64,000 nt of DNA from Myxococcota bacterium (GCA_028285625.1 JANQOX010000025.1:206461-270460); one strand, 5' to 3'; positions 18,200 through 63,356 are shown, counted from the first letter of the stretch. Notes: generated by a model not told the origin, from the letters alone. Made by a program: numbers and translations.

Positions 18200-18569
18200 T
18201 TCGTCCTCGTGGGCTAGTTTGGGTTGAGGCGTTTCGACCCTGGTTGTATGTGGCCAGCGCCCTGGAAAGTGTCACTCCGCCCCGAATTTCGGCTGGCGCG
18301 ATCATGGCGGCCGTGACGGTCGCCAGGGCCTTTCGAGGCGTGTCCTCCAGCCGAAGCTGAAACTCGCGGCTCGCGGCGGAGGGCGTTGCAGGCCGCCTGG
18401 ACATCGGAGTCCGCGCGGCATCCAGCGGTGCACGGTGGTGCGGTCCACCCTGGCCAGCTCGCTGCACGCTCGGAGGCTCGGGCGGCCATGGCCGGCCAGG
18501 CGCTCCGGATCGCGTTGCGCCACAAATGGGCTCCGCAAGCCACGCTACGGGAGACCCCAGGAGAGTTGC

Positions 18570-48456: not shown

Positions 48457-49362
48457 CTACGGGCTCGCCGGAGCCGGCTGCGGCTCGCGCACCGTACGCG
48501 CGATCAGGTCGTCCTTGCAGTGGGTGCACAGGCCGTGGGTGAACGCGGCCTTCGAGTGGGCCTCGAGGTAGCCCTCGAGCTGTGTCCAGTACCCCTGGTC
48601 GTCGCGGATGCTCTTGCAGGACGAGCAGATCGGAAGCAGGCCCGAGAGCTCGCGGACTTCGGAGACCAGGCGGATCACCGCAGCGAACACCCAGGTCGCC
48701 AACGCGATGCCGGCGGCGAGCAGGCTGCCCCCCACCCACCAGGCCACGCGCTCGTCCCTTCGCGCGGCGTTGGCGGCGTCGTCAGCCGCGGCTCCTGCCG
48801 ACGCGAGCAGTGCGCCCAGGGCGGTTTCGAGCCCGTCTTCGAGCGCCACGGCCTGGTGCGCGGCGGCGACCGCCCGGCCGCGTTCACCCGCGTCGAGCAG
48901 GGCAAAGGCCTCGCGGACGCGCGCCGCATAGGCGTTGTGGGCGGCATCGAGTCGCGCGATCTGCCGGGTCATCGTCTCCGCGCCCGGGTCCTGCGCGCGC
49001 ACCGCGTCCTTGGCCAGGCCGCGTGCTTCCTGGAGCTGGGACCAGATCGTGGCGGCGCGGGCTGCGTGTTCGTCCCGCGCGGCGGCGTAAGCGGCCTGAG
49101 CGTCGGCGGATCGGTGCCGGTCGTCCGCATGCCGGATCGCCCGCTCGAGCAGAACCGCCTGCTCGTGGTAGGCGTCGTTGACCCCCACGGCGATGGTCAG
49201 CAGCGGCACGTCGCGGGCGGTGACGCGCGCCAGGGCCTGGGAGGCCCGGGCGCGCGTCCCTAGCGCCGCACCGATGGCGACCGTCATGAACAGCAGCAGG
49301 CCCAGCAACAGGGCCAGGATCTTGGTCCGGATGGCCACAACCTCTCTCCTGCCTCGAAGCAT
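48457..49362 (-). CDS. Membrane sensor: four-helix-bundle-like periplasmic region + TM + C-terminal Cys4 motif
   Basis: TM1 ILALLLGLLLFMTVAIGAAL, an Ala-rich helical ectodomain, TM2 WWVGGSLLAAGIALATWVFAAVI. C-terminus LPICSSCKSIRDDQGYWTQLEGYLEAHSKAAFTHGLCTHC. Confidence 0.7.
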   Translation of the reverse strand: MLRGRREVVAIRTKILALLLGLLLFMTVAIGAALGTRARASQALARVTARDVPLLTIAVGVNDAYHEQAVLLERAIRHADDRHRSADAQAAYAAARDEHAARAATIWSQLQEARGLAKDAVRAQDPGAETMTRQIARLDAAHNAYAARVREAFALLDAGERGRAVAAAHQAVALEDGLETALGALLASAGAAADDAANAARRDERVAWWVGGSLLAAGIALATWVFAAVIRLVSEVRELSGLLPICSSCKSIRDDQGYWTQLEGYLEAHSKAAFTHGLCTHCKDDLIARTVREPQPAPASP

Positions 49363-49465: not shown

Positions 49466-50839
49466 CTACCGGGTCGCGAGCGAGCCCAGGCGGGCAACGG
49501 CTGGGGGGCAGGCGAGGCCGGCGTCCAGGTCGTAATCCCCGGCGCCGTGGAGCACCTCGACGTTGCCGTCTGCAATGAGTCGGATCCGCTGGGCGCCCGC
49601 GCCGTTCACGGGCTGGTCGCCCTCGAGCCGGATGTCGCCGCCGGCCCGCACCACGAGGCCTTCGAAGTCGAGACCGCGTACCGGCACGAGTACGTCCGAA
49701 GCCCCGATCACCGTCACGCGTTCTCGTCCGTCGCCGCCTACCGGCTCGAGACCGACCACGGGCTGACCGGCTTTCACGACGATCGGCACCGTGCTCACGA
49801 AGGTGAGGCCGCGCATGCCGACGGGTCCGTTCGGGCTGACCTTCGTGTTCACGGCGGGGTTGTGCCAGCGAAGCGAAGCCGCCGAGAGACCATCGTCCGG
49901 CGCTTCGTAGAAGATCACCGTCGGCTGCTCGCCGGCGGGCTCGATGGCCGTGAGGTCGAAGAATGCGGTGCGGGCGAAGCTACGTCCCTGCGTCGCCTGT
50001 TCGGCACCCACGCCGTAGTAGACGCCATCGGGGGACGATCCCTCCGTATAGATGACATCGGCGGCGGCGCGTAGCTCGTCGAGGAGTGTGGCGTCGACCG
50101 GCCGGATGTCATCGAGTCTCGGGGCCTGTGATTCGGCGTCGGCCAAGGCCGCCGGGCGCACGTTGGCGAATCGTTCGACGGTGGGGCCGAAGATTCCGAA
50201 CGTGATCACCTGATCGGCCTCGAAGATCGATCCCTCCGCGGACCATGCCGTCTCGCGGATCTGCGGCGAGCCCGAGACGATCACGTCGCCGTTGGCGTGG
50301 ACGAGCCCGCCACGCAGTGCACCGCCGGTGCTGCCGTCGAGAAAGAGCCGCACCTCTCCGCCCGGGTCGAGCGAGATGAGGCCGTAGTTGCGCAGGTGCG
50401 CGACCGACGCGGCGGAGACCCTGACGCCATCGCGCCGTCCGCCGCGAAGCAGGGTCGGGACCACACGCGAGAGGCGAATGCGGTAGGCGTTGCCGACGGC
50501 GTCTTCCGGGAAGCCGGGCGATCCCGCGGCGACGAACTCGGAGCCGTCCGCGAACGCATCGCGCATGTCGTTCTCGTCGAACCAGCCGCGCGTGATTTCG
50601 AGCACGTCCTCGTCGCGCGCTCCGGCGGCCTGCGCCATCACGCGCACGGCGGCCTCGGGGTCGTCGTCACACAGCGCCTGCGCGCCCGCCAGCGCCGCCG
50701 CGCGGGACGCGGTGGCCAGGCGGCCGCGCTCGGCGAACAGCACGCCGGTATCGGTGACGAGGCCCAGCAGCAGTACGCCGAGCAGAAGCAGGAGTGCCGC
50801 GGAGACGGCGATGCTGCCGGTCTGGCGTCGGCGCAGCAT
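49466..50839 (-). CDS. tadG: TadG-like Flp-pilus assembly protein
   Basis: The start is MLRRRQTGS at 50839. TadE/G-like N-terminus GSIAVSAALLLLLGVLLLGLVTDTGVLFAERGRLATASRAAALAGA, followed by a large beta-rich domain. Confidence 0.7.
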   Translation of the reverse strand: MLRRRQTGSIAVSAALLLLLGVLLLGLVTDTGVLFAERGRLATASRAAALAGAQALCDDDPEAAVRVMAQAAGARDEDVLEITRGWFDENDMRDAFADGSEFVAAGSPGFPEDAVGNAYRIRLSRVVPTLLRGGRRDGVRVSAASVAHLRNYGLISLDPGGEVRLFLDGSTGGALRGGLVHANGDVIVSGSPQIRETAWSAEGSIFEADQVITFGIFGPTVERFANVRPAALADAESQAPRLDDIRPVDATLLDELRAAADVIYTEGSSPDGVYYGVGAEQATQGRSFARTAFFDLTAIEPAGEQPTVIFYEAPDDGLSAASLRWHNPAVNTKVSPNGPVGMRGLTFVSTVPIVVKAGQPVVGLEPVGGDGRERVTVIGASDVLVPVRGLDFEGLVVRAGGDIRLEGDQPVNGAGAQRIRLIADGNVEVLHGAGDYDLDAGLACPPAVARLGSLATR

Positions 50840-50862
50840 GGGGCGTCGGCAGCGCGAGGCGC

Positions 50863-51171
50863 TCACCTCAGCTGGCGCACCTGTTGCGAAGCGCTTGGTT
50901 GGACCTCGGGCTCCTCGAGCAGGGACTCGACGTAGCGTTCTTCGTAGACGCGGTTCGCGACCTCGCCCGGTAGCCCCTCGGCCGGCGTCGCGTCCTGGGC
51001 CCCGGACGGGTTCACGACCTGGGCTTGGAAGGCATCCCGGTAGGCGTCGCCGTAATCGTCGCTGATGTGCCGCTTCGGCCCTGCGCAGGCCAGCGCCAGG
51101 AGCGCGGCGCAGCCGAGCAGCGCACAGGTCGTTCGAGAGGCCGTTCGCGGTCTGGTGTGGTTCGGGATCAT
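50863..51171 (-). CDS. Small lipoprotein within the tad locus
   Basis: The ATG shares one base with the tadD stop (TGATG). Lipobox LLALAC. 102 aa. Confidence 0.6.
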   Translation of the reverse strand: MIPNHTRPRTASRTTCALLGCAALLALACAGPKRHISDDYGDAYRDAFQAQVVNPSGAQDATPAEGLPGEVANRVYEERYVESLLEEPEVQPSASQQVRQLR

Positions 51172-51947
51172 CAAGGGGTCTCCTCTCGGGGCTCGAGTCG
51201 TGCGAGGTTGCGGCGCGCCGGGGCGAAACGGGGGTCGAGCTCGACGGCGTCGCGATAGCGGGCTCGCGCGCGATCGGTGTCGCCGCGCAGTTCGAGAACC
51301 GCACCGAGGTCGTTCATCGCCGCGGCGAGCGGGCGGCCTTGGGACAGGACCCGCAGCGCTTCGTCTTCGCGCCCCAGCAGGGTCAGCGAAGCCGCCAGAT
51401 TGATGCGCGCCGGGGCGAAATCGGGATCGAGCGACAGGGCGCGCTCGAAGTGCTTGCGCGCGGTGGCAGGTTCTCCGGCCGCCAGTCGCGAGAAGCCCAG
51501 GTCGTTGTGGAACGCCGGACGCGCCGGATCGAGTGCGATCGCCCGCAGGTAGGCCGACTGCGCATCTTCGGCCCGGCCGAGCTGGTCGAGGGTGAGGCCG
51601 AGTCCATGGTGGGCGCGCGCATGGGAGGGGTCGGCGTCGACCAGCCGTGAGAAGGTGTCCTCGGCTTCTTCCAGCCGGCCTTCTTCGCGCAGTGAGATGG
51701 CGCGCAGGTGCTGGACTTCCGCGTCGTCGTCGGGAGCGCGTTCGAGCTGGACGAGGGCCACGTCGTGCAGGCCGCGCCGCACCAGCTCGCGCGCTAGCGA
51801 GACCACCTGGGCGTCGCTCGGGGCGTCGACCACCGGCACCTCCGGCTCGTTCGGGGTCGCGCACGCGAAGGTGAGCGCTGCGACGCATGCGGCGGTCGCG
51901 CCGCGCCACGCGCGGCTCGCAGGGTGTCGGGCTCGGACGCGTCTCAT
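51171..51947 (-). CDS. tadD: TPR-repeat lipoprotein, TadD-like
   Basis: Lipobox ALTFAC. At least five TPR-like repeats (AHHGLGLTLDQLGRAEDAQSAYLRAIALDP etc.). Confidence 0.75.
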   Translation of the reverse strand: MRRVRARHPASRAWRGATAACVAALTFACATPNEPEVPVVDAPSDAQVVSLARELVRRGLHDVALVQLERAPDDDAEVQHLRAISLREEGRLEEAEDTFSRLVDADPSHARAHHGLGLTLDQLGRAEDAQSAYLRAIALDPARPAFHNDLGFSRLAAGEPATARKHFERALSLDPDFAPARINLAASLTLLGREDEALRVLSQGRPLAAAMNDLGAVLELRGDTDRARARYRDAVELDPRFAPARRNLARLEPREETP

Positions 51948-52831
51948 TGGAATCGCTCCATCAGCCGGATCAGGCCAGGCCCCGCCACCACGATGAGCAG
52001 AGCGGGGAGGATGAACAGGATCATGGGGAAGGTGATGCGCACGGGGGTTCGCGCGCCCTTCTCCTGCGCCGCCTGGCGTCGCTCGGTCCGAAGCGCGGCG
52101 GCTTGCACGCGCAGTGCTTCGCTCACGTCGGTGCCGTAGCGCTGCGACTGCAGCAGCACCGTCACGACGGCGTCGACCGCACGGACCCCGCAGCGCTCGC
52201 GGAGGTGATCGAGCGCACGCTCCCGCGAGAGTCCCCCTCGAATCTCGCGCAGGGCGTGCCGCAGTTCGGCGGAGAAGACGGGTGCCACATGCTCGAGTTC
52301 GCCGCTGGCACGCTCCGCGGCCGACTCGAAGCCGAGCCCGCCTTCCATCGCCACCAGCACCAGGTCGAGCAGGTCAGGGAGCTCCTCGACGATGCGCGCC
52401 CGTCGGTGGTCGCGCATCAGGCGAACCACGATCGCCGGGCCCAGGTAGCCCACCGCGGCGAGCGCCAGCGCCCAGGCGAGCGCCTGGGAGCCCGCCGTCG
52501 GGATCATCGCCAGCGCGGGCAAGGCGAGGACGGCCGCGGTGAGCAAGCGTGCCCCGTAGAAGGCCGGGAGTGCATCGTCCTGGGCCCATCCAGCTTCGGC
52601 CAGCCGGGCGCGAGCCTCGCGCTGCTCTTGCGGATCCGAGGGGACGCCGGCGTTGCCGATGCGCGCGAGCGCGTCTCGCAACCCGCGATCCGGCGCAGCC
52701 CGGTCGCCGCTCAGTTCGTGAACCAGGTTGCGGCGCCGCAGGAAACGACGGACGACGGCATCGGCGGCCAGAATCGCGCTGGCGCCGCCGGCGAAGGCCA
52801 CGAACCCGAGTGCCAGGGTCGATGCACTCAT
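51944..52831 (-). CDS. tadC: Flp pilus assembly inner-membrane protein TadC (T2SS F family)
   Basis: T2SSF domain ELPDLLDLVLVAMEGGLGFESA...LLQSQRYGTDVSEALR. C-terminal TM pair. 4-nt overlaps on both sides. Confidence 0.85.
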   Translation of the reverse strand: MSASTLALGFVAFAGGASAILAADAVVRRFLRRRNLVHELSGDRAAPDRGLRDALARIGNAGVPSDPQEQREARARLAEAGWAQDDALPAFYGARLLTAAVLALPALAMIPTAGSQALAWALALAAVGYLGPAIVVRLMRDHRRARIVEELPDLLDLVLVAMEGGLGFESAAERASGELEHVAPVFSAELRHALREIRGGLSRERALDHLRERCGVRAVDAVVTVLLQSQRYGTDVSEALRVQAAALRTERRQAAQEKGARTPVRITFPMILFILPALLIVVAGPGLIRLMERFQ

Positions 52832-53748
52832 ACGCGTACCCGCGAGAGTGCACGCATGGCCATGAAGCCCACGCCCTCGAGCACGAGTGCTGCCAGCAGC
52901 AGGGCCCGGCCCGTGGGCGCCTCGAAGAGCGGCGCCACGTAGGCGGGGCGCAAGAGCGCGATGCCCACCATGAACACGAGCGGCAGGAGCGCCAGGACGA
53001 TTGCGGTGGCGCGTCCTTCAGCGGTGACCGCACGCACGTCGCGCCGAAACACCACGCGCTCACGCAGGGTGGCGGCGAGCCGCTCGAGGATGTGGGCCAG
53101 GTTGCCGCCGGTTTCACGCTGCAGCACCAGCGCGGCCACCAGGAAGCGCACCTCGGCCACGCCCGGGTAGCGTTCGGCCAGCCCGCGAACCGCCCGCTCG
53201 AAGGGCGCGCCCAGTCGGAACTCTTCCTCCACCCGTCGCAGCGCACGGCCCACCGGATCGGGCATGCGTTCCCCCGCTTCGCGCAGCGCGGCATCCATGG
53301 GCTGGCCCGAGCGGATCGCCCGCGCGACCACGTCGATCGCCTCGGGTAGCTGGGCCTGAAGGGCCTCTTCGCGGCGGCCGCGCCGCGCTCGAAGGGAGGC
53401 ACAGCCGCCGAGGGGCGTGGCGATGCCTGCCAGGAGCGCCCAGCCGATCGAGCCGGATAGGGCGAGCGCGATGGTACCCAGGGCGATGGAGAGCCCGCCG
53501 AGGGCGGCCAGGAAGCGGGAGGGAGCCATCGCGATCCCGGCGCCGTCGAGAAGTGTCGGCAGCGACAGCCACACGGCCAGCGTCTCGAGCGGCGGGGTGG
53601 CCGCAGGATCCGGTTCGTGCGCAAGTTGGGGGCGCAACGGCGCGAGCGCTTCGATCACCTGGGTGCGGCGGCGGCTGCGCAGGTCGGCACGCCACAGCCA
53701 CACCCCCAGGGCGAGCAGGGTCAGCGCCGTCACGGCCGCGACGATCAC
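52828..53748 (-). CDS. tadB: Flp pilus assembly inner-membrane protein TadB (T2SS F family)
   Basis: QLPEAIDVVARAIRSGQPMDAAL...LVLQRETGGNLAHILERLA. Confidence 0.85.
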   Translation of the reverse strand: MIVAAVTALTLLALGVWLWRADLRSRRRTQVIEALAPLRPQLAHEPDPAATPPLETLAVWLSLPTLLDGAGIAMAPSRFLAALGGLSIALGTIALALSGSIGWALLAGIATPLGGCASLRARRGRREEALQAQLPEAIDVVARAIRSGQPMDAALREAGERMPDPVGRALRRVEEEFRLGAPFERAVRGLAERYPGVAEVRFLVAALVLQRETGGNLAHILERLAATLRERVVFRRDVRAVTAEGRATAIVLALLPLVFMVGIALLRPAYVAPLFEAPTGRALLLAALVLEGVGFMAMRALSRVRV

Positions 53749-55109
53749 GGCGCCCGCCTCGGTGCCGATGCCTTCTCGAAGGCGAGCAGGCCGTCGGGCA
53801 GGGCGTGGCCGGTGGCGGCCAGCCGATCCTCGAAGCGCGAGGCCTCGCCCAGGCCGCGGAAGGTGCCGAACACCCGGCCCTCGTCGTCGACGCCGCGCTG
53901 CTCGAAGACGATCCGTTCTTCGAGGCGCGCGCGTTCGCCGTCCATCCCGACCATCTCCGAGATCGAGACGATGCGCCGGCTCCCGTCGGAGAAGCGTGCG
54001 AGCTGAACGACCACGTCGACGGCGCTGGCGATCAGGCGGCGGACGGCCTGCTCCGAGAACCCCGAGGTGCCCATGCTGGCCATCACCTCGATGCGCGAAA
54101 GGGCATCGCGTGGGTTGTTCGCGTGGACCGTGCTCATCGAGCCCGGGTGGCCCGTGTTCATCGCCTGCAGCATGTCCATGACCTCGGCGCCGCGGGCCTC
54201 GCCGACGATGATGCGATCCGGGCGCATGCGCAGACTGTTCTTCACCAGGTCCGAGAGCTGGACCTCGCCACGCCCTTCGAGGTTGGGCGGGCGAGACTCC
54301 AGCGTGACCACGTGGGGCTGGCGAAGCCGAAGCTCGGCGCTGTCCTCGATGGTGAGGATCCGCTCGGTCGGAGGGATGTAGTCGGAGAGCGCATTCAGCA
54401 GCGTGGTCTTGCCCGAGCCGGTGCCTCCCGAGATCAGCACGTTCAGCCGGGCCCCGACGGCGGCGGCGAGGTAGCGCTGCATCTCGTCGGTGAAGGCGCC
54501 CCCGTCGAGCAGGTCGTCGGCGCCGAGCGGGTCGCGCCCGAACTTGCGGATCGAGATGGCGGGGCCCCCGAGCGCGAGAGGCGGCAGGATCACGTTCACC
54601 CGCGAGCCGTCGGCGAGCCGCGCGTCGACCATGGGCGAGGCCTCATCCACGCGCCGGCCCACGGCCGCCACGATGCGGTCGATCACCTGGCGCAGGTGCG
54701 CCGCATCGCGGAACCGCACGTCGGTGCGGTGGAGGACGCCGGAGCGTTCGACGTAGACGTCGTCGGGCCCGTTCACGAGCACGTCCTGCACCTCGGGATC
54801 GCGAATCAACGTCTCGAGCGGACCGAGGCCGAGGACCTCGTCGACCAGCTCGCTCACCAGGCGCGCACGCTCGCCCCGGTTGAGCGGGACGTGGGTCTCG
54901 CTGGCGATCTGGACCAGCGCTTCGCGGACCTCGCGTTCGAGCGCTCCGCGGTCGCGCGGACCGGCGGCATCGAGATCGAGCGAGGCGACCAGGGCCTCGT
55001 GCACGCGATCCTTCAGCAGGTCGAACTCGCTGGTCGCGTCGAGGACCTGCGCGGCGGCCTCGGTGGGCAGGGCAGCGTCGCCACCCCGAAGACGTTCGGC
55101 GAGCCTCAT
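53745..55109 (-). CDS. cpaF: Flp pilus assembly ATPase CpaF/TadA
   Basis: ATG at 55109 overlaps the cpaE stop. LISGGTGSGKTTLLNAL (Walker A), RILTIEDSAEL, RMRPDRIIVGEARG, GHPGSMSTVHAN. Confidence 0.93.
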   Translation of the reverse strand: MRLAERLRGGDAALPTEAAAQVLDATSEFDLLKDRVHEALVASLDLDAAGPRDRGALEREVREALVQIASETHVPLNRGERARLVSELVDEVLGLGPLETLIRDPEVQDVLVNGPDDVYVERSGVLHRTDVRFRDAAHLRQVIDRIVAAVGRRVDEASPMVDARLADGSRVNVILPPLALGGPAISIRKFGRDPLGADDLLDGGAFTDEMQRYLAAAVGARLNVLISGGTGSGKTTLLNALSDYIPPTERILTIEDSAELRLRQPHVVTLESRPPNLEGRGEVQLSDLVKNSLRMRPDRIIVGEARGAEVMDMLQAMNTGHPGSMSTVHANNPRDALSRIEVMASMGTSGFSEQAVRRLIASAVDVVVQLARFSDGSRRIVSISEMVGMDGERARLEERIVFEQRGVDDEGRVFGTFRGLGEASRFEDRLAATGHALPDGLLAFEKASAPRRAP

Positions 55110-56254
55110 TGCCCGGTTCCGCCGAACAGCCGGCGCCACCACGCGGTGGCCTCGGGCTGGGCCTGTCCGAGCAGGTGGGCGGCGAGGGCGTCGATCGCGC
55201 GCGAGGCGTCCGCCTCGGCGTCGATCCGGCCGATCGGCCGGCGTTCGCGCGCCGCAGCTGCCCACAAAGAGCGGTCCTCGGCGATCTGCGCGACGGGCTC
55301 GTACCCGATGATGCGCTCGAGGTCAGCGGGCCGGATGTCGTCGCCGGCCGCAGTGCGCGTGAGCACGACCTCGACCGCTGCCGTCGCCCCGATCTCGTTC
55401 ACGAACTCGAGCGCGGCCTGGGCGCGGCGCAGGCTCGCCGGAGAGGGCGTCACCACCAGCAGGATCCGGTCGGCGGCCTCGAGCGCGCAGAGCACGGGAC
55501 GCGAGAAGTCGTGCGGCAGGTCGAGCACCAGATGGTCGAGGTGGGATCGCAGCGTCGCGAGCAGCGAGGCCAGCGGTCCTGCGCCCACGCCCTCGGCATC
55601 CTGAACGGCGCCTTCGCAGGTGGAGAAGCGGAAGCCGTCGCCCTCGTACCGCGCGAGCGTTGCGTCGAGCAGTTCGCGATCGAGTCGGTCGAGACGGCCG
55701 AGGAGCTCGTGGGGCCCGGCCGGGCAGGGGCCCGCGAGCCAGCTTCCCAAGCCGCCTACGTACAGGTCGAGATCGAGCAGGAGGACCTCGCCCCCGCTGC
55801 GCACGTGCAGCCGGTCGGCGAGGGCCGCGCAGAGGCTCGTCGAGCCCGCGCCACCCGAGGGCGCGAATACGGCCGTGACCGTGGCGCCCGACTGGCCCGT
55901 GACGTCGAGACAACGGTCGACCGCCGAGCGAAGCGCGCCCGCTGCGCCGTCGCGTGTGGCGAGGTCGCGTGCGCCGGCGCGAAACGCGGCGAGGACGACC
56001 TCGGTGGGGGCTTCGTCCGCGAGCGCGAGGATCGGGAGCTCCGGTGCGGCCTCGCGTAGCCGAGCGACCCAGCCGAGCGCGCGTTGGGCGTCGGGCGCGA
56101 GGTCGACCACCACGAGCTTCGCGCCGCCTTCGGCAACCCGGCCCAACGCCTGCTCGACCGTCTCGGCAGCCGCGAAGGGGCCCGCGTCGTTTCCGAGCTC
56201 GCCCATCAGCCAGCGCAGGCTCGCCTGCTTCTCGGAAAGGACGACCAGGCTCAT
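55106..56254 (-). CDS. cpaE: CpaE/TadZ-like protein (REC-like N-domain + MinD/ParA-like domain with degenerate P-loop)
   Basis: N-terminal receiver-like KLVVVDLAPD...PILALAD. At the P-loop position it reads VFAPSGGAGSTSL instead of KGGxGKT. The rest is colinear with MinD/ParA-like proteins (VLLLDLDL...LVLDLPH). Confidence 0.75.
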   Translation of the reverse strand: MSLVVLSEKQASLRWLMGELGNDAGPFAAAETVEQALGRVAEGGAKLVVVDLAPDAQRALGWVARLREAAPELPILALADEAPTEVVLAAFRAGARDLATRDGAAGALRSAVDRCLDVTGQSGATVTAVFAPSGGAGSTSLCAALADRLHVRSGGEVLLLDLDLYVGGLGSWLAGPCPAGPHELLGRLDRLDRELLDATLARYEGDGFRFSTCEGAVQDAEGVGAGPLASLLATLRSHLDHLVLDLPHDFSRPVLCALEAADRILLVVTPSPASLRRAQAALEFVNEIGATAAVEVVLTRTAAGDDIRPADLERIIGYEPVAQIAEDRSLWAAAARERRPIGRIDAEADASRAIDALAAHLLGQAQPEATAWWRRLFGGTGQ

Positions 56255-57651
56255 TCGGAGAACCCGAAGGGCCCGCTGAACTCGGGCGTGCCGGTGGCGC
56301 GGACGGGCTCGTCCTCGCGCGGCGGCGCCATCGTCCGGTTCAAGAGGAAGAAGTCGACGTCCGACACGTCACCCGCCCAGTCGTCGCCAGGCAGCGCCGG
56401 TTCGCGGTCGACGGCGCGCGCCAGTCGCGCGGTCACGGCGATCACCAGCTCGGTTTCGTCGGTGCGCGCCTCCTTGCGGGTGAAGAGCGTGCCCAGGCCA
56501 GGGATGTCGCCGAGGAAGGGCAGCCGACCATCCGCCAGCGAGTTCTCCTCCTGGAGCAGGCCCGCCATCACGAACGTCTGGCCGTCCTTCAGCTGCAGCG
56601 TGGCGGCCGCGCGGCGCGTGCGGACACCCGGGACCGCTACCCCGCCCGAGACGGTGCCGAGAGATTCGTCGGTGTTGCTCACCTCGGGCTCGACGCGCAG
56701 GCTGATCGTCTCGGGCGCGACCACGGTCGGCGTGAACCGCAGCAGCGTGCCGAACTCCTTGAACTCGATCGACGTCACGCCGTCGCGCACCGCCACCGGC
56801 ACCGCGAACTCGCCCCCGACCAGGAAGCTCGCCTGCTGGCCGCTCATCGAGACCAGGGTCGGGCTCGCCAGCAGCCGGGCGAAGCCCTGCTCGCGAAGCA
56901 GACTCAGCACCGAGAGGAAGTCGTCGTCGAAGGCGGCGATCTGGAAGGCGGACGCGAACGGCGTGAGCGCGGTGAGGGCCGACTGGATGATGGTGTCCTC
57001 GGCCGAGGTGGCCTCGCCGGAGACGTCGCCGGCCGGAATCACGCCCAGCGTGAACTCGTCACTGATCAAGAACGACAAGCCCATCCGCCGAAGGCCGGAC
57101 CGCGAGACCTCGGCGACCCGAACCTGGAGCTGCACCTGCTGATCGCCCCCGACGCGCATCAGGTTCGTGACCTGCGCGCCCAGGGCCTTGGCCACGGCGA
57201 GCACCCGCTGCTGGTGCTCCATGCTGGGCACCGTACCGTCGAGCAACACCCCGTCGCGCCCGGGCAGTACGCGGACATCGCCCTCCGGGACGAGTTCCTG
57301 GAGGCGTCGATCGATCGACGCCGCGAGGCCGTCGGGCAGGGAGACCTCGAGCTCATACACGTCCACTCGCGCTTCGCCGTGCCACAGGATCAGGTTCGTC
57401 GCGCCCACGCCGCCGCTGGCCGTGACCAGGATCTGGGTGGGGGTGAGCAGACTCACGTCGGCGATCGACGGGTCGGCCACGGACATGCGCGAGATCGGTG
57501 TGCTGGTGCGCAGCACCAACGACTTGCCGCGCTCGACCGAGAGCTGCTTGGGTGCCGCCGCATCCACCAGGTCGGCTGCGGACGGTCGCCAGGGCGTTGC
57601 CAGCAGCAGTCCCAGCACGAGCACGGCGGAGAGAATCGGTCGTGCGATCAT
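56251..57651 (-). CDS. cpaC: Flp pilus secretin CpaC/RcpA
   Basis: Signal peptide. Pilus N-terminal region (ISRMSVADPSIADV). Secretin core LASPTLVSMSGQQASFLVGGEFAVPV ... LPFLGDIPGLGTLF. Confidence 0.9.
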   Translation of the reverse strand: MIARPILSAVLVLGLLLATPWRPSAADLVDAAAPKQLSVERGKSLVLRTSTPISRMSVADPSIADVSLLTPTQILVTASGGVGATNLILWHGEARVDVYELEVSLPDGLAASIDRRLQELVPEGDVRVLPGRDGVLLDGTVPSMEHQQRVLAVAKALGAQVTNLMRVGGDQQVQLQVRVAEVSRSGLRRMGLSFLISDEFTLGVIPAGDVSGEATSAEDTIIQSALTALTPFASAFQIAAFDDDFLSVLSLLREQGFARLLASPTLVSMSGQQASFLVGGEFAVPVAVRDGVTSIEFKEFGTLLRFTPTVVAPETISLRVEPEVSNTDESLGTVSGGVAVPGVRTRRAAATLQLKDGQTFVMAGLLQEENSLADGRLPFLGDIPGLGTLFTRKEARTDETELVIAVTARLARAVDREPALPGDDWAGDVSDVDFFLLNRTMAPPREDEPVRATGTPEFSGPFGFSE

Positions 57652-58670
57652 TCGTAGAAGGTCCGTTCGCTGCGCCGTCCGCCACGGACGACCTCGACGC
57701 GCGAGGTGGCGCGCCGTTTGGTGAGCAGGTCGGTGAGCGCCTGGCCGCGCGTGGCCACCTGGCCGGTGTCGTCCTGGTTGCGACCCAAGAGCCGCAGCAG
57801 GCTGCGAGACGTCGCGTCGGTCGCGACGGCGAGCCGCTCGGCATCTTCGGGAGGCACGAGCAGGGTGACCCGCCGGGCGGGCTGGGGCCGGTCGACGCCG
57901 CCCTCGAAGGTCTGCTCGGTGGCGAGCACCTCGACGTCCTGCAGGATCAGCCGCGAGACCATGCGCGTGGCACTCACCTGGCCGGGAGCGCCGGGTGCCG
58001 TGTTGCCTCCGCTCGCGAAGGTGCTGAACGGAGAGGTGAGGATCACGTCCACGCGGTCGCCGGGTCGCAATACGCCCGCGATGCCATCGGTCTCGCGCAC
58101 TTCGATGGTGATGGCGCGCAGGCCCGGCGGAATGTCGTCGACCAGGGTGCGGTCGCGCTCCACCAGGGTCGATGCGCCGCTCTCCCGCGTGAAGGCCAGC
58201 TCTCGAGCGCCGATCGGGCCCTCGTCCGAGGGGTTGCGGACCAGCAGCGCAAAGCGCGCGCCTTCGGCGGCCGCGACGGACATGGCCTGCTCGGGTGTGG
58301 CCAGGATCGAGACGGGCAGGGCGCCCCCGCGCCGCGACGGGGCCTCGCCAACGGCATGCACCGTCACGTCCTCGAGCAGCAGTCGCGAGACGCGGTCGCC
58401 GTCGGCAGACGGAAGCTCCGAGGTGGCTACGACGTCCACGCGGTCGCCCGGAGACAGCGCGCCCCCGTGGCCGCCGACCCGCTCGATGGGCAGGGCCACG
58501 GCGCGCATGCCCACCGGAATCTCCCGCTCGACCGTCTCGGCGTCCTCGTCGGGCGGCGCTGCAGCCACGGGGGGCGTCGCCGTGTCGGACGGCCCGATTG
58601 CCACGCGCACGGCGACCAGCCCGACCAGCAGGGCCGCCAGCAATACGATCCAGGTGCGAGCGCTGGGCAT
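57648..58670 (-). CDS. cpaB: CpaB/RcpC family pilus assembly protein with duplicated RcpC-type module
   Basis: N-terminal TM segment. Module 1: IPVGMRAVALPIERVGG..LSPGDRVDVVATS...LLEDVTVHAVGE...TPEQAMSVAAAE. Module 2: IPPGLRAITIEVRETDGIAGVLRPGDRVDVILTS...ILQDVEVLATEQ...PPEDAERLAVATD. Confidence 0.8.
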   Translation of the reverse strand: MPSARTWIVLLAALLVGLVAVRVAIGPSDTATPPVAAAPPDEDAETVEREIPVGMRAVALPIERVGGHGGALSPGDRVDVVATSELPSADGDRVSRLLLEDVTVHAVGEAPSRRGGALPVSILATPEQAMSVAAAEGARFALLVRNPSDEGPIGARELAFTRESGASTLVERDRTLVDDIPPGLRAITIEVRETDGIAGVLRPGDRVDVILTSPFSTFASGGNTAPGAPGQVSATRMVSRLILQDVEVLATEQTFEGGVDRPQPARRVTLLVPPEDAERLAVATDATSRSLLRLLGRNQDDTGQVATRGQALTDLLTKRRATSRVEVVRGGRRSERTFYE

Positions 58671-58680
58671 GGAAGCGTCC

Positions 58681-59094
58681 TCATCGAAGCGGGACCACGG
58701 AGACCGCAGACAGCGACTGCGGGATCAAGGCGTCGGGCAGGTAGCCGACGAGGGGTTCGTAGGGCAGCCGCTCCACCGCGACGCGCAGACGGCGCGGAGC
58801 GGCGGCGGCCTGCGGCAGCTCTTCGACGACGATCGCGTCGGCCGGGAGATCGCCAATCCAGTACGACTCGCGTAGCGCCGTCCTCGCGAACTGCGCCGGG
58901 TCTTCGCCCAGCCAGTCGCGTGCGGTTCCGCCGGACTGCGCACCGGAGTCGACCGCCTGGACGAGCACGAGTCGCGTGGTGAGGAGCCAGCCGAACTCGA
59001 GCATTGCGAAGACCACGAGCAGCAGCGCGGGAAGCACGATCGCGAACTCGAGTGCCGCCGTGCCTGCGCGCCGTCGTCGATCGCGCCGCGTCAC
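58681..59094 (-). CDS. tadE: TadE-like pseudopilin
   Basis: GTG at 59094 overlaps the cpaA stop (GTGA). GTAALEFAIVLPALLLVVFAMLEFGWLL. Confidence 0.8.
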   Translation of the reverse strand: MTRRDRRRRAGTAALEFAIVLPALLLVVFAMLEFGWLLTTRLVLVQAVDSGAQSGGTARDWLGEDPAQFARTALRESYWIGDLPADAIVVEELPQAAAAPRRLRVAVERLPYEPLVGYLPDALIPQSLSAVSVVPLR

Positions 59095-59594
59095 CAGAGG
59101 TCTCCGAGCGCCAACCAGGCCGTGAACCCGGCGGCCAGGGCCACGGCGTAGGGCAGGGTGTGCGCCGTGGGCTCGGCGTTGGCGCGGCCCGCCTCTCCCG
59201 TCGCAAGCAGCGTCGCGAGGTCGCGAAACGGGCGCGCCGGATCGACCCTTCGGCGGCGAACCAGCGCGACGCCCAGGGCCAGCAGGGCTCCCGCCACTGC
59301 GGAGTAGGCGAAGACCGCGATCACCGAGGTCGTGCCCAACCAGGCGCCGAGTGCCGCGAGCAGCTTCACGTCGCCGCCGCCCATGCCACCCAGTGCGAAC
59401 GGCCCGATCAGCAGCAGCCCACCGACGACGAGGCCCGCGAGCGGCACGCCGACGGGTGTTCCCGCGAGCGCATGAAACGCCAACGCGGTGATCGCCGAGC
59501 AGGCGACCAGCACGTTCGGGATCCGCCGCGCCTTCAGGTCGGTATGGACCGCGACCGCCAGCGTGGCTGCGCACGCTGCCACGATCAGGCTCAC
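59091..59594 (-). CDS. cpaA: Prepilin peptidase CpaA/TadV (A24 family)
   Basis: HTDLKARRIPN and GMGGGDVKLLAALGAW (two catalytic Asp contexts). 167 aa, polytopic. Confidence 0.88.
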   Translation of the reverse strand: MSLIVAACAATLAVAVHTDLKARRIPNVLVACSAITALAFHALAGTPVGVPLAGLVVGGLLLIGPFALGGMGGGDVKLLAALGAWLGTTSVIAVFAYSAVAGALLALGVALVRRRRVDPARPFRDLATLLATGEAGRANAEPTAHTLPYAVALAAGFTAWLALGDLW

Positions 59595-59803
59595 CGGGTG
59601 GTCTGCTCGCTCGCGATCTGGTTCTCGGCGTCGTCGAGCCGGTCGGTGAGCGCGTCGAATACGTTCTCGATCCGGTCGCCGAACGTCCCGAGGGCCACGA
59701 TCAGCACCGCGCCGATCAGGCCGGCGATCAGCCCGTATTCGATCGCGGTCACGCCGCTCTCGTCGTCTCGAAGTCGTTGCAGGAGCTCACGGAGTCTTCG
59801 CAT
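59591..59803 (-). CDS. flp: Flp family type IVb pilin
   Basis: MRRLRELLQRLRDDESG/VTAIEYGLIAGLIGAVLIVAL: Flp leader plus the G/xTAIEYGLIA processing motif. GGAGAA lies 5 nt before the ATG at 59803. The stop overlaps the cpaA start. Confidence 0.9.
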   Translation of the reverse strand: MRRLRELLQRLRDDESGVTAIEYGLIAGLIGAVLIVALGTFGDRIENVFDALTDRLDDAENQIASEQTTR

Positions 59804-60131
59804 CGGGTTCTCCATCCTGTTTGGTGGTTCCGGCCGCGGGAGCGGCAGGCGAGTAGACCTCTCGCGCGAGAGGGCGCCCTCCCAGGAGCAGCACGACGGT
59901 CACCGGTTCCTGGGTCTCGGCCGTCTCGCGGTAGCGCGTCGCGACTTCACGCATCACGTCCCGGGCCTCGCCCGCGTGGGCCGGCTTCACCCGAATCCAG
60001 AGCTCGTGCTGCGGCCGCACCTCGAGGCTCGCGAGAGGCAGGTCGGACGTCCGCGCCTTCAGGTCGGGCGACTCCGCGAGCGAGGCGCTCGCGAGTCCGC
60101 ACGCGATCAGGACGATCCACGCTGCTCTCAT
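59787..60131 (-). CDS. Small secreted protein, function unknown
   Basis: The ATG overlaps the upstream stop (ATGA). Signal peptide MRAAWIVLIACGLASASLA. High GC3. The 3' end overlaps the flp start by 17 nt. Confidence 0.6.
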   Translation of the reverse strand: MRAAWIVLIACGLASASLAESPDLKARTSDLPLASLEVRPQHELWIRVKPAHAGEARDVMREVATRYRETAETQEPVTVVLLLGGRPLAREVYSPAAPAAGTTKQDGEPDAKTP

Positions 60132-60937
60132 GCCCGGCCCCTGGCACGTCGACGACGCACGAACGACCAGGCCAGCGCGGCGAGGCCGGCTTCGAAGCCC
60201 AGGCCGCAGGCGCGCCCGACGCCTTCCTTGTTGATGTGCCCACCGCTGCTGCACTGGGGGTCGGGGGTCGCGCCTCCGATGCCCCCGTCCCAGTCGATGC
60301 GGCCATCGTTGTCGTTGTCGATCTCGTCGTCGCACTGGGGCGACTCGTTGAATCCGATTGCGTTGAAGCAGCCGGGGTCGGCCGTGTCGACGAGGCCGTC
60401 GCCATCGTTGTCGACGCCGTCGTTGCACGCGCGCACCGGAAAGCTGAGCCCGGCGCCAGACGCCGTGGGCACCGCGGCGCCGGCCAGGTATTGCCCGTTG
60501 GCGATCACGCCGAAGCCCTGGACGCCGGTCGCGAACGTGATGTCGGCGATGTCGTCGGGCACGGCACCGAGCGCGAGCTGGAACGTGATCGTACCGAGCA
60601 CCGTCGGGCTGGTGATGGGGGCCGCGATGCCCTGGTCGGCGCCGTTGAAGGCATCGAGCTGGCCTGGGATCGTCTGGACCATCGGGCCGAACGCATCACC
60701 CTGCACCGGGGCCGGTGGCGTGTTGGTGTACGAGCCGGTCCAGGTGACCTTCGTCTCGTCCACGGCGAACGAGAAGTTGTAGGCCGCGAGATCCACCGTG
60801 CCGCCCTGCGGGTCGAGCACGACGTCTACGGTGAGGTCGCCGTCGGGGTTGTCGAGGAGAACCACCCAGGACGCTGCGGGCTGTGCCGCCAGGACCAGGG
60901 TGGCCGCTACGGTGAGAAGTCGAATAAGGGTGTGCAT
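60128..60937 (-). CDS. Secreted protein with CxDGxDNDxDG Ca-binding-type Cys repeats and a Cys-containing C-terminal TM/Arg-rich sorting-like tail
   Basis: Signal peptide MHTLIRLLTVAATLVLAAQPAAS. Repeats ACNDGVDNDGDGLVDTADPGC and QCDDEIDNDNDGRIDWD...DPQC. C-terminus RACGLGFEAGLAALAWSFVRRRRARG. Confidence 0.75.
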   Translation of the reverse strand: MHTLIRLLTVAATLVLAAQPAASWVVLLDNPDGDLTVDVVLDPQGGTVDLAAYNFSFAVDETKVTWTGSYTNTPPAPVQGDAFGPMVQTIPGQLDAFNGADQGIAAPITSPTVLGTITFQLALGAVPDDIADITFATGVQGFGVIANGQYLAGAAVPTASGAGLSFPVRACNDGVDNDGDGLVDTADPGCFNAIGFNESPQCDDEIDNDNDGRIDWDGGIGGATPDPQCSSGGHINKEGVGRACGLGFEAGLAALAWSFVRRRRARGRA

Positions 60938-62391
60938 CAGAACCAGGGCTCCGCGGTCAGCCATCGCGGCCGGAAGAGGAAGTAGTCGCCGAGGTCGACG
61001 AAACCGTCGCCGTTCATGTCGCGGTCTTCGTTTCCGGGCGAAGGCGCCTCGAGATAGCTCGAGGCGAAGTCGAAGAAGTCGGCGAGGTCGACGAAGCCAT
61101 CGTTGTTGAGGTCGGCGTCGGCCACGTTGCCGGTGCCGTCTCCATCGAAGTCCTCCTGACCGGGGTTCGGCGTGAAGAAGGCGTTGTCGGCGGAATCGGG
61201 GATGCCGTCTCCGTCCTGGTCCGGCGCGCCCGCCGGGAAGTACATGGTGAACCGCGGCGTGACACCCGGCCCCCAGAAGTCCTGGCCCGCCGCGGTGCAG
61301 CTTCCGCCGTCCACCGTGGTCGGGTTCCACAGCACGCCGAGGCTCGCGCCCCACGAGTTGTAGATCGCGCCGGTGGCGGGGTCGTCTTCGCAGCTGTCGG
61401 GGGCGAGCTCCTTGTACTCGGAGCCGTTGCCTTCGTCGACGGGCGCTCCCCCGCCGGCAACGCGCGCCACGACCGAGGCTTCGATCACCGCCGCATAGCC
61501 GGTTTCCGTACCGGCGCCTCCCCCGAAGGCGTCGCCACCGCCGATGTGGACGTTGCCCTCAGCGTCGAAGCCGAGGCTCGAGGCCGACAGCACGTTGCTG
61601 GCCAGCAGTGCGCCGTCCACGCCGTAGTCGAGCGGTGTCCCTGTGCCGAGCGCGTTGAAGACCTGTGCCGAGCTGAAGTAGCGGATCTCGCCGGTCTGGC
61701 CGGGCGGCGCAAAGCCGAGTCCGGTGACCAGATTGCCGAACGGATCGATCCCGATCGCGCCCGATGCACCTGGGATGTTCTGGATGAGCGCGCCGCCCGG
61801 ATCGTTCGGCACCGACGTGTCGATGGCGCCGATTCCCGAAATGCAGGGGATGCCCTGACCGCAGGACCAGAGCCCACCGGTGAGCACCAGCAGGTCGTTG
61901 CCGAGCCACTCGCCCTCCTGGTAGTTGATCGGGTACGCCTGTACGCCGGGCGCCGTATCGAGCACGGGCGGATTGGTGGTATCGAGCGCGCTGGTCGGAA
62001 TCACCAGCAGGTCCTGGGCGAAACCCAAGCCGAGCGCGATCTTCGTGCCATCGGGCGAGATCCGCACGAAGGCCGGGTCCATCACGCCCTGAGTCGTGCC
62101 GACCGGGATGAACGCGCTCGCGCCGTGGTTCTTCTGCAGGTAGAGCGTCTGATCCATGGCGACCAGCGACAGTCCGTCGACCGGGAAGTTGCCGATCTGC
62201 TCGCCCGCCGTCGGGGGAAACTGGTCGACGACGGCGACGAATCCGCTCTGGATCGTCGGGAACGACACCTCCTGGGTCGAGCCTTGCGCGGTTCCGTAGT
62301 CGTCGAAGTCGTCTGCGTGTGCGGTCGCGGCCAGCGCGAGCCCCACGATCGCGATCAAGAGTCGCAACGGGTTCCTCCTCGAACGTTGCAT
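60937..62391 (-). CDS. Secreted protein: beta-propeller-like N-region + thrombospondin-type-3 / dockerin-like Ca-binding repeats
   Basis: ATG at 62391 follows GGAGGAGG. Signal peptide LLIAIVGLALAATAHA. DQDGDGIPDSADN, DFDGDGTGNVADADLNNDGFVDLADFFDF, DRDMNGDGFVDLGDYFLF. Confidence 0.8.
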   Translation of the reverse strand: MQRSRRNPLRLLIAIVGLALAATAHADDFDDYGTAQGSTQEVSFPTIQSGFVAVVDQFPPTAGEQIGNFPVDGLSLVAMDQTLYLQKNHGASAFIPVGTTQGVMDPAFVRISPDGTKIALGLGFAQDLLVIPTSALDTTNPPVLDTAPGVQAYPINYQEGEWLGNDLLVLTGGLWSCGQGIPCISGIGAIDTSVPNDPGGALIQNIPGASGAIGIDPFGNLVTGLGFAPPGQTGEIRYFSSAQVFNALGTGTPLDYGVDGALLASNVLSASSLGFDAEGNVHIGGGDAFGGGAGTETGYAAVIEASVVARVAGGGAPVDEGNGSEYKELAPDSCEDDPATGAIYNSWGASLGVLWNPTTVDGGSCTAAGQDFWGPGVTPRFTMYFPAGAPDQDGDGIPDSADNAFFTPNPGQEDFDGDGTGNVADADLNNDGFVDLADFFDFASSYLEAPSPGNEDRDMNGDGFVDLGDYFLFRPRWLTAEPWF

Positions 62392-62434
62392 CTGCCACCT
62401 CCTCCCCAAGCTTGTCAACAAGAGGTCGCCGTGG

Positions 62435-62462
62435 GCGGGCCGCACCCGACGGTGCGGCCCGC
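62435..62462 (-). terminator. Perfect 12-bp GC-rich stem-loop just after the PEP-CTERM gene stop (terminator/attenuator candidate)
   Basis: The minus strand reads GCGGGCCGCACC-GUCG-GGUGCGGCCCGC, starting 19 nt after the stop at 62481. It is followed by CCACGGCGACCUCUUGUUG, so there is no clean U-tract. Confidence 0.5.
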
Positions 62463-62480
62463 TCACGGGTGGATCGGCCC

Positions 62481-63356
62481 TCAGTCGCGTCGGCTCCGGA
62501 GCCACACGACCGCCAGCGCTGCGAGGCCGAAGCCCAGCGCGGGCTCGGGCACTGCAGCGCCCGTGGCGGCGCTCGACACGACCACCGCGTCCAGCTCGAA
62601 ATTGAGCGACGTGCCCGCGTTGCCATCGTCGGCCACGCTGAATCGCACGTAGGCAACCTGGCTGAGGCCCGTGCCCGACAGGTCGAGCCAGGTCCCGCCG
62701 CCCGAGCCACCGAACGCCGCGACCGTCGAGGCGTAGTCGAGGCCGTCGAATGTGCCGAGGCTGCCCGAGCCCAGGAACGGCAAGCCGAAGTCGGCGCCCA
62801 CCGCCCCAGCCGGCTTCGAGGTGTCGAAGGGACCCGCGTTCAGCCAGAAGATGGACGGCAGGTCGAAAAGGATCGGCGCGCCTCCGTTGAGGGCCACGAA
62901 GGTCTGGCCGTCCTCGCTCACCTCCACCACGGCGGAGTCGAGCCCGAAGGCGAAGGCGGGGCTGAAGTTCTGGCCCGTGGGAAACGACGCGTCGGCGAGT
63001 CCCACGTTCGCCACCACGCCCAGCTCGAGCCCGGCGCCCACCACCGCGAAGTCGCGGAGCTGGATCGTGAGGTGGCCGCCCTCGCCGATGGACACCAGCT
63101 CGTCGGCCTCGAACCCGGGGTTGAAGGGCGACAGGACATTGTCGAAGCCCGCGTCCTCACCCACGATCCCACTCGGCAGCCGCTTCGCCGAATCGGGGTT
63201 GGTGAGTCCGGCCGCTGCCGTCGTCCCCGGGTCGTAGCTCACGACCCGCTTGCCGAAGGACAGCGCGTTCGCATTGCCCCCAATCAGCAGCCCGGCGGCC
63301 GCCATCGTCCAAACCAACGCCTGCGCGCAATTCACCCGTCGCAATAGCCTGTGCAT
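62481..63356 (-). CDS. PEP-CTERM sorting-signal surface protein (first gene after the cobalamin riboswitch)
   Basis: Signal peptide MHRLLRRVNCAQALVWTMAAAGLLIGGNANA. Canonical C-terminus AAVPEPALGFGLAALAVVWLRSRRD. The central region is beta-rich with no domain I can name. Confidence 0.85.
   Translation of the reverse strand: MHRLLRRVNCAQALVWTMAAAGLLIGGNANALSFGKRVVSYDPGTTAAAGLTNPDSAKRLPSGIVGEDAGFDNVLSPFNPGFEADELVSIGEGGHLTIQLRDFAVVGAGLELGVVANVGLADASFPTGQNFSPAFAFGLDSAVVEVSEDGQTFVALNGGAPILFDLPSIFWLNAGPFDTSKPAGAVGADFGLPFLGSGSLGTFDGLDYASTVAAFGGSGGGTWLDLSGTGLSQVAYVRFSVADDGNAGTSLNFELDAVVVSSAATGAAVPEPALGFGLAALAVVWLRSRRD

Follow-up and report, generated by a model that had tools for sequence, protein, structure and literature searches.

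A conserved surface-protein module is linked to one subtype of Tad pilus locus in a Myxococcota bacterium and in Desulfobacterota-type contigs

Do genes for exported surface and calcium-binding proteins that stand directly in front of a set of Tad pilus genes belong with the pilus, or are they neighbors only? The question is raised by a stretch of 64,000 nucleotides (nt) from a Myxococcota bacterium (GCA_028285625.1, JANQOX010000025.1:206461-270460), referred to below at its whole length as the window. Here, 16 consecutive minus-strand genes (49466-63356; 68-74% guanine plus cytosine, GC) run from four genes for exported proteins, which we call p1 to p4 and together the module, into 12 pilus genes. 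A preliminary description of this DNA had announced 17 genes and listed 16; the chain itself stands, and 16 is the count. We find genetic linkage between the four-gene module and this Tad subtype in many genomes. With a probability of about 0.62, we think that one compact operon joins a complete Tad machine to a lineage-conserved surface-protein module, co-expressed for adhesion and aggregation; pilus and module probably work together in attachment or clumping. The features of the chain, in the direction of transcription, are as follows.

62481-63356, minus strand: p1, exported PEP-CTERM surface protein, 291 residues from ATG 63356 (start 63416 in the public gene call)
62429-62468, minus strand: GC-rich hairpin in the p1/p2 spacer, the sole long spacer of the chain
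60937-62391, minus strand: p2, secreted seven-bladed beta-propeller with C-terminal TSP3 and dockerin-like calcium-binding repeats, 484 residues
60128-60937, minus strand: p3, exported protein rich in beta structure, with two acidic double-disulfide repeats and, at the C-terminus, a Cys/hydrophobic/Arg-rich anchor, 269 residues
59787-60131, minus strand: p4, small protein (exported or membrane-anchored) whose family is undescribed, 114 residues
59591-59803, minus strand: flp prepilin, 70 residues (alternative start 59815); Flp_Fap 1.3e-15, 57.3 bits (cutoff 32.2); processing motif G/VTAIEY
59091-59594, minus strand: cpaA/tadV prepilin peptidase; Peptidase_A24 2.6e-17, 63.6 bits
58681-59094, minus strand: tadE minor pilin (pseudopilin); TadE 6.1e-12, 45.9 bits; leader G/TAALEF
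57648-58670, minus strand: cpaB/rcpC; RcpC 1.6e-40, 138 bits, in two stretches
56251-57651, minus strand: cpaC/rcpA secretin; Secretin 4e-40, 137.6 bits; T2SS-T3SS_pil_N 4.7e-17
55106-56254, minus strand: cpaE/tadZ-like ParA/MinD-like ATPase with a receiver-like N-domain; AAA_31 27.1 bits (cutoff 27), CBP_BcsQ 25.6 bits (cutoff 21.3)
53745-55109, minus strand: cpaF/tadA motor ATPase; T2SSE 3.6e-66, 223.8 bits
52828-53748, minus strand: tadB platform protein; T2SSF 3.7e-20, 72.6 bits
51944-52831, minus strand: tadC platform protein; T2SSF 5.8e-16, 59 bits
51171-51947, minus strand: tadD TPR lipoprotein; TPR_2 4.9e-27 and other TPR families
50863-51171, minus strand: small subtype-specific lipoprotein, 102 residues
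49466-50839, minus strand: tadG large minor pilin-like protein, 457 residues (alternative GTG 50866); PF13400 'Tad' 21.8 bits (cutoff 22.3)

To see whether the module recurs, we scanned other genomes from the Tad side, independently of the module genes, with CpaF as query and one genome per species (a scan with CpaB had found no relative and was repeated with CpaF). This yielded 80 tad loci, 13 of which (L005-L016 and L052) have the window's gene order, with the small lipoprotein, the TadG type or both. These same-subtype loci come mainly from Desulfobacterales metagenome-assembled genomes (MAGs) and from Desulfosarcina cetonica JCM 12296 (L006); the window CpaF, whose best relatives are those of Desulfobacterales, is 55-63% identical to them. 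Homologues of p2, p3 and/or p4 stand just beyond tadG in 8/13 of the same-subtype loci versus 0/67 of the other tad loci (Fisher P = 4e-8), which belong to Acidobacteriota, Planctomycetota, Betaproteobacteria and others. PEP-CTERM tails are encoded beside tad in 8/13 versus 5/67.

Other searches started from the module. A metagenome scan with the p4 alignment returned 15 contigs, and all those with enough flank hold the same Tad subtype (L093, L097, L098, L101, L102, L105). Among eight p2-anchored look-ups, five had tad genes within 10 kilobases (kb) (L088, L089, L090, L106, L107). Homologues of p2, p3 and p4, often with a p1-like PEP-CTERM gene, stand beside this Tad subtype in ~20 Desulfobacterota-type contigs of 41-71% GC. 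The preliminary description had proposed synteny as a test, and the upstream genes do recur at orthologous tad loci rather than being random neighbors. Their placement relative to the pilus genes takes four forms.

Arrangement A: module 5' of flp and co-directional (window, L093, L107)
Arrangement B: module convergent with tadG (14 loci)
Arrangement C: module co-directional after tadG (L089, L105)
Arrangement D: tadG inverted, in the same orientation as p2-p3-p4 (L011)

Adjacency that survives rearrangement across contigs of such different base composition argues for functional coupling. Some details also recur. The order in L093 is p1-like, PEP-CTERM, p2, p3, p4, DUF1573, flp; p4 lies nearly always where the module meets the tad genes, and directly after p2 there is nearly always a p3-like or unclassified PEP-CTERM gene (~14 loci). 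Arrays of 8-10 PEP-CTERM genes occur in relatives, and the L090 module has a PEP-CTERM-type exopolysaccharide (EPS) export locus on one side and the tad genes on the other.

Two further observations concern the relatives. A DUF1573/Ig-like gene is recurrent between module and tad genes (L006 15881-17167, L015 15724-16464, L016 15684-16424, L089 15015-16052 and, between p4 and flp, L093 10143-10907); the window chain has none. In a Desulfobulbus MAG (L088, 12285-19147), an rve integrase gene and two copies of a DDE transposase interrupt the module; it contains duplicated p2 fragments and three p3-like genes, and eight PEP-CTERM genes stand in an array before it.

The 12 downstream genes of the window are a complete Tad/Flp (type IVc) pilus locus, in which CpaB and CpaC make up the outer-membrane conduit and CpaE, CpaF, TadB and TadC the motor and platform. 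The genes were judged by the curated Pfam cutoffs, which all Tad families pass except PF13400 (tadG) and TadZ_N (21.4 bits in cpaE/tadZ, cutoff 26.4), and the identities and order first given for the Tad set were borne out by Pfam. Homologues of tadG carry PF13400 and Tad_C in precomputed matches, and tblastn finds tadG in 12 related loci. Compared with the Tad/Flp loci of Caulobacter (cpa) and Aggregatibacter (tad), the window has the same core set in the usual order. It differs in having neither RcpB/CpaD nor TadF, in the ~100-residue lipoprotein after tadD and in the conserved p1-p4 module alongside, here fused 5' of flp. The earlier remark that no rcpB or tadF is recognizable also holds: with Pfam, neither RcpB/CpaD nor a second small minor pilin (TadF) was found in the locus. 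In 13 related loci a homologue of the small lipoprotein comes after tadD, in each case with a lipobox and an LPG..A..IY.KRY motif. The protein has no consistent Pfam family and belongs to none described, and it may be a stand-in for the missing RcpB/CpaD. An assignment to DUF3613 or CpaD was rejected, these being lone weak matches that are inconsistent across 10 homologues.

How tightly is the chain packed? A stop/start overlap of 1 or 4 nt is possible at 12/15 chain junctions compared to 3/20 of the other same-strand junctions in the window (Fisher P = 1.7e-4). Two of the 12 (flp/cpaA and lipoprotein/tadG) hinge on the choice of start, and a conservative count of 10/15 gives P = 0.004. The junctions read as follows.

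p2/p3: TGATG at 60937, 1 nt (alternative ATG 60964 gives 28 nt)
p3/p4: ATGA at 60131
flp/cpaA: GTGA at 59594 (alternative GTG 59582, the Logan gene call, gives an 8-nt gap)
cpaA/tadE: GTGA at 59094
ATGA junctions: 57651, 56254, 55109, 52831 and 51947
cpaF/tadB: GTGA at 53748
tadD/lipoprotein: TGATG at 51171
lipoprotein/tadG: GTGA at 50866, or ATG 50839 with a 23-nt gap
tadE/cpaB: 10-nt gap, no overlap
p1/p2: 89-nt spacer with the GC hairpin, no overlap

All overlaps named in the preliminary description were found at their coordinates, and flp does start inside the preceding gene, p4: its ATG at 59803 overlaps p4 by 17 nt (29 nt from the alternative ATG 59815), and a GGAG lies 6 nt 5' of ATG 59803 within the p4 coding sequence. 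Compaction exceeds the background of this genome. In the orthologous loci of relatives, -1/-4 overlaps are possible at ~2-5 of ~10 junctions, and tadB/tadC is the sole junction at -4 in most loci compared. The overlaps are therefore a trait of this genome's copy and not a conserved feature of the system. The idea that they weld surface proteins and pilus together as a functional signature finds no support, because in relatives the module mostly lies on the other strand and converges with tadG, or other genes come between it and flp. Simple scans of the p2-tadG interval found no sigma-70 or sigma-54 consensus sites beyond chance and no terminator-like site or unusually stable structure, including after flp; at such a base composition these scans are weak evidence. 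An internal sigma-54 or sigma-70 promoter, a terminator and a post-flp structure were rejected as candidates on this basis.

The upstream end of the chain is looser. The preliminary description spoke of three secreted calcium-binding or sorted proteins fused translationally 5' of flp; p1 is parted from p2 by the hairpin-bearing spacer. The hairpin consists of a 12-base-pair perfect stem (GCGGGCCGCACC/GGUGCGGCCCGC) and an outer 5-base-pair stem; the 101-nt spacer region folds with a free energy of -54.6 kcal/mol (z = -3.7), and 0/200 shuffles fold as well. No T-run follows 3' of it, and the terminator scan made no call there. It could be a terminator without a U-tract, an attenuator, a processing site or an mRNA-stabilizing element, and because of this spacer p1 may be a partly or wholly separate unit. 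After the hairpin, shortly 5' of the p2 start, we noted a TTGACA hexamer and a Shine-Dalgarno sequence, GGGAGGAGG.

The p1 protein has a Sec signal peptide and the architecture of PEP motif, transmembrane helix and Arg cluster; its C-terminal tail VPEPALGFGLAALAVVWLRSRRD, with the PEP segment VPEPALGFGLAALAVVWLRSRR, passes the TIGR02595 PEP_CTERM model (17.5 bits, NCBIfam cutoff 16). Its 186 homologues are mainly Planctomycetota PEP-CTERM proteins, and its profile matches the p1-like genes adjoining p2 in L008, L012, L085 and L087 (hhalign probability 99.1%). A tad linkage of the p1 family was rejected, as the Planctomycetota contexts L002-L004 show no tad genes. Likewise, the gene after the p1 homologue in L002 was rejected as a p2 relative, BLASTP having found nothing. 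A second window open reading frame (ORF), at 17339-18271 on the minus strand, ends in a PEP-CTERM-like tail (STPEPTRIALFAVLFAALWRRSG), which suggests wider exosortase use in the genome.

The p2 protein has a signal peptide and was modeled with high confidence by AlphaFold2 (predicted local distance difference test, pLDDT, 92.9; predicted template modeling score 0.90) as a seven-bladed beta-propeller followed by TSP3-like calcium-binding loops and two loop-helix repeats. Foldseek matches in the PDB are generic seven-blade propellers, e.g. YCF48 and WD40 (E ~1e-6). The window copy reaches TSP_3 at E = 1.8e-4, below the Pfam cutoff, and carries two DxNxDGxVD calcium loops with a helix predicted after each (AlphaFold2). 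Many of the ~57 full-length homologues, from Sorangium, Desulfobulbus, Syntrophobacteraceae and Desulfosarcina, carry Dockerin_1 (PF00404) and are annotated as 'dockerin type I domain-containing protein'.

The p3 protein has a signal peptide, a beta-rich N-domain and a near-threshold match to the acid_disulf_rpt model NF033662 (40.5 bits, cutoff 41). The N-domain is homologous to the PEP-CTERM proteins directly after p2 in many related loci. The tail of p3, ACGLGFEAGLAALAWSFVRRRR (60128-60220, minus strand), has the tripartite layout of a sorting signal, with Cys, a hydrophobic helix and RRRR; the Cys takes the place of the PEP of p1, and the same tail occurs in a relative, P0128. The Desulfobacterota p3 homologues end in canonical PEP-CTERM; the p3 tail may be a lineage-specific variant sorting signal. 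The p3 homologue of L008 is similar over residues 27-206 to the flocculation protein PepA, with a match to NF033554 (E = 1e-8) that stays below the cutoff. A reading of p3 as a cohesin (PF00963) was not supported, with no Pfam match at E <= 10 in seven family members, and no cohesin was recognized anywhere else in the locus.

For p4, a word-indexed search recovered p4 alone, and full HMMER was then used. This gave 61 representatives that share a ~60-residue C-terminal domain after a membrane anchor and a variable linker, with the signature GEIWIRI..P...RDIMAQVADLYR...VTV.LWVGGRP.AR..Y. The domain has no Pfam match; in the model of the homologue P0128 it forms beta-beta-alpha-beta-beta (pLDDT 92-98), and a fold search gave no PDB match at E < 0.3. 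In nearly all long contigs p4 adjoins tadG or flp. P0128, the closest relative found, unites the p3-like and p4-like proteins in a single 365-residue ORF, in the order p3 tail, p4 signal or anchor, p4 domain; whether it is a real fusion or a frameshift, it bears out that the p3-p4 adjacency is conserved.

From these parts we propose how the system may work. Transcription would start 5' of p2 or of p1, and termination-reinitiation at the overlaps would lead to the whole set being made together, with flp's own Shine-Dalgarno sequence presumably kept for high output and the genes compacted, as we suppose, in this high-GC genome. We expect p1 to be sorted to the cell surface by an exosortase via its PEP-CTERM tail, and perhaps p3 to be sorted via its unrecognized Cys/transmembrane/Arg tail. 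p2 would be a soluble calcium-binding propeller retained at the surface by its dockerin-like module; as the p3 gene comes next after p2, p3 is proposed as its likeliest docking partner. p4 may be a periplasm-facing accessory of the Tad machine or of module export. The pilus would make the first contact, after which the sorted proteins and the propeller would provide for aggregation of cells and for adhesion to surface or matrix.

In floc-forming bacteria this is what PepA and other PEP-CTERM proteins do (PMC9850573). A role in attachment or aggregation fits the module, because the L008 p3 homologue is PepA-like, if below threshold, and because a PEP-CTERM-type EPS locus flanks the module in L090. 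In comparison with the PEP-CTERM/exosortase proteins of this kind (PepA of Zoogloea and Aquincola; PMC9850573), the p1 tail passes, the p3 tails of relatives are canonical and one relative's p3 homologue is alike over ~180 residues, below threshold. The window differs in that known PEP-CTERM genes are tied to EPS and exosortase loci and not to pilus machines, in that its p3 tail has Cys for PEP and in that the scanned window ORFs include no exosortase. Compared with non-cellulosomal dockerins and cohesin-dockerin pairs, p2 homologues match Dockerin_1, whereas the window copy stays below the cutoff and has no recognized cohesin beside it.

Several points weigh against this co-expressed, cooperating system. 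The Fisher P-values overstate the case, as the related loci are not phylogenetically independent. Five same-subtype loci (L005, L010, L013, L014, L052) are without p2-p4, although the L010 contig stops ~0.85 kb past tadG and L013 and L014 do hold PEP-CTERM genes. In three contexts, Sorangium L085 and L087 and the planctomycete-like L086, p2 has no tad genes within 10 kb, so that the pair of p2 and p1-like gene is not obligatorily tad-linked. The promoter scans have little value in a host of 71% GC. For the individual proteins, an exosortase was not found among the ~20 other window ORFs scanned, the p3 tail matches no sorting-signal model (PEP-CTERM, MYXO-CTERM or others), and the window p2 reaches 13.2 bits with Dockerin_1, where 22.9 are needed. 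For the docking of p2 on p3, a PDB profile search with p3 gave no cohesin, and the AlphaFold2 N-domain of the p3 family has low confidence (pLDDT 30-60).

Some of these observations could instead be explained if p1-p4 were an independent exosortase/PEP-CTERM operon that shares an 'adhesion island' with the pilus genes by common ancestry, the overlaps reflecting compaction and read-through without functional coupling. Relatives do not conserve the overlaps, the module is mostly on the opposite strand, the p1 family is widespread in Planctomycetota without a tad link, the pair of p2 and p1-like gene stands alone in Sorangium, and the hairpin parts p1 from p2. However, the adjacency outlasts at least four kinds of rearrangement, over 41-71% GC and with CpaF identity at just 55-63%, p4 is found almost exclusively at the tad border, and p4 and flp share 17 nt in the window. 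On balance we regard mere neighborhood as unlikely, though it is the strongest of the alternatives.

Further from the evidence, the Tad machine, itself related to type II secretion, could be the outer-membrane route for the module proteins, with p2 carried by the growing pilus or with p1 and p3 in need of the CpaC secretin; this we consider decidedly improbable. Module and PEP-CTERM genes do cluster specifically beside tadG, which encodes a tip minor pilin, and in L011 tadG is co-oriented with p2-p3-p4. To our knowledge, no Tad system has been shown to secrete proteins. There are precedents in related machines: type IVb pilus operons encode soluble colonization factors, TcpF and CofJ, that are secreted by the pili as soluble partners via binding to the tip minor pilin (PMC9565799, PMC6048534, PMC10120004), and MYXO-CTERM and rhombosortase substrates reach the surface only with a type II secretion system (bioRxiv 10.1101/2023.06.07.544157). 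Like TcpF and CofJ, p2 is soluble, Sec-exported and encoded inside a type IV-family pilus operon beside minor-pilin genes; unlike them, it has a dockerin-like module and a candidate for an anchored partner next to it, and it is not related to them in sequence or fold.

The p2 family has a conserved aromatic motif that bears on this route. At the mature N-terminus, directly after the signal-peptide cleavage site, DFxxY (residues 27-32 of the window p2; 62296-62313, minus strand) is conserved with F in 45/53 and Y (Y32) in 53/53 sequences, and we note its superficial likeness to the FxxxY secretion signal of TcpF. The motif is, however, internal in a pilin-fused homologue, P0242, and structured in the AlphaFold2 model, where residues 28-31 are helical and pLDDT rises from ~73 (residues 21-30) to ~91 (residues 31-40). 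Because of this, it probably belongs, as far as the model can tell, to the fold and is not a secretion signal. P0242 (L086, 10001-12094; planctomycete-like) fuses a prepilin-type N-terminus (N_methyl, DUF1559-like) to the p2 propeller, without dockerin, which would suit a pilus-borne p2; a 128-residue gene with a p4-like C-terminal pattern follows it, and no tad genes lie within 10 kb. The p2 and p1-like genes that occur without nearby tad in three contigs also speak against export by the pilus machine. No more likely is an extended form, in which this Tad subtype would serve as the outer-membrane export or display route for C-terminally sorted proteins of PEP-CTERM type and the dockerin-bearing propeller, with p4 as the adaptor between sorting pathway and pilus machine. 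If true, pilus and type II-like secretion system would be combined here in one hybrid machine whose task is to build an adhesive cell surface.

The preliminary description had also suggested tip adhesins, and p1-p4 do lie directly 5' of flp, P0242 does join pilin and propeller, and the beta-propeller and calcium sites of p2 recall PilY1, the type IVa pilus tip protein with a beta-propeller and calcium binding. A place for the upstream proteins within the Flp filament or at its tip is nevertheless very hard to believe in, given that none of p1-p4 has a G/XXXXE[YF] (class III) prepilin leader and all have ordinary Sec-type signal peptides, that there is no Pfam PilY1/PilC match, no PilY1 in the top 50 PDB structural matches and no pilin-like segment, and that the locus already encodes TadE and TadG, Tad tips being built from TadE/TadF/TadG minor pilins (PMC12075869).

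Outside the chain, the genes below 49466 are metabolic and unrelated, including MiaE, an acyl-CoA ligase-type enzyme, a Rieske protein and amidohydrolases. Directly after tadG (48457-49362, minus strand), a gene for a 301-residue membrane protein with the C-terminal Cys motif LPICSSCKSIRDDQGYW...HGLCTHC has no Pfam or NCBIfam match; this gene sits after a small hairpin and has its own promoter-like TTGACG-16-TATGCT (49385-49358). A response-regulator/GGDEF/EAL protein (turnover of cyclic di-GMP) is encoded at 22075-23835 (minus strand), ~26 kb from the tad chain, and is a possible regulator of surface behavior.

Taken alone, the Tad locus is ordinary. New are the accessory module that is conserved beside it, the p4 family, which is undescribed, the lipoprotein specific to the subtype and the link between Tad and PEP-CTERM/dockerin proteins. 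In the searchable literature we found no description of a Tad link to exosortase/PEP-CTERM, nor of dockerin together with PEP-CTERM. As far as we know, the mechanism by which PEP-CTERM proteins cross the outer membrane is not established. Tad pili and PEP-CTERM/exosortase proteins are two widespread, separately studied routes to attachment and flocculation, and their linkage in sulfate-reducer-type and related uncultured bacteria of sediments and sludge offers concrete candidates for cooperation between a pilus and surface or matrix proteins.

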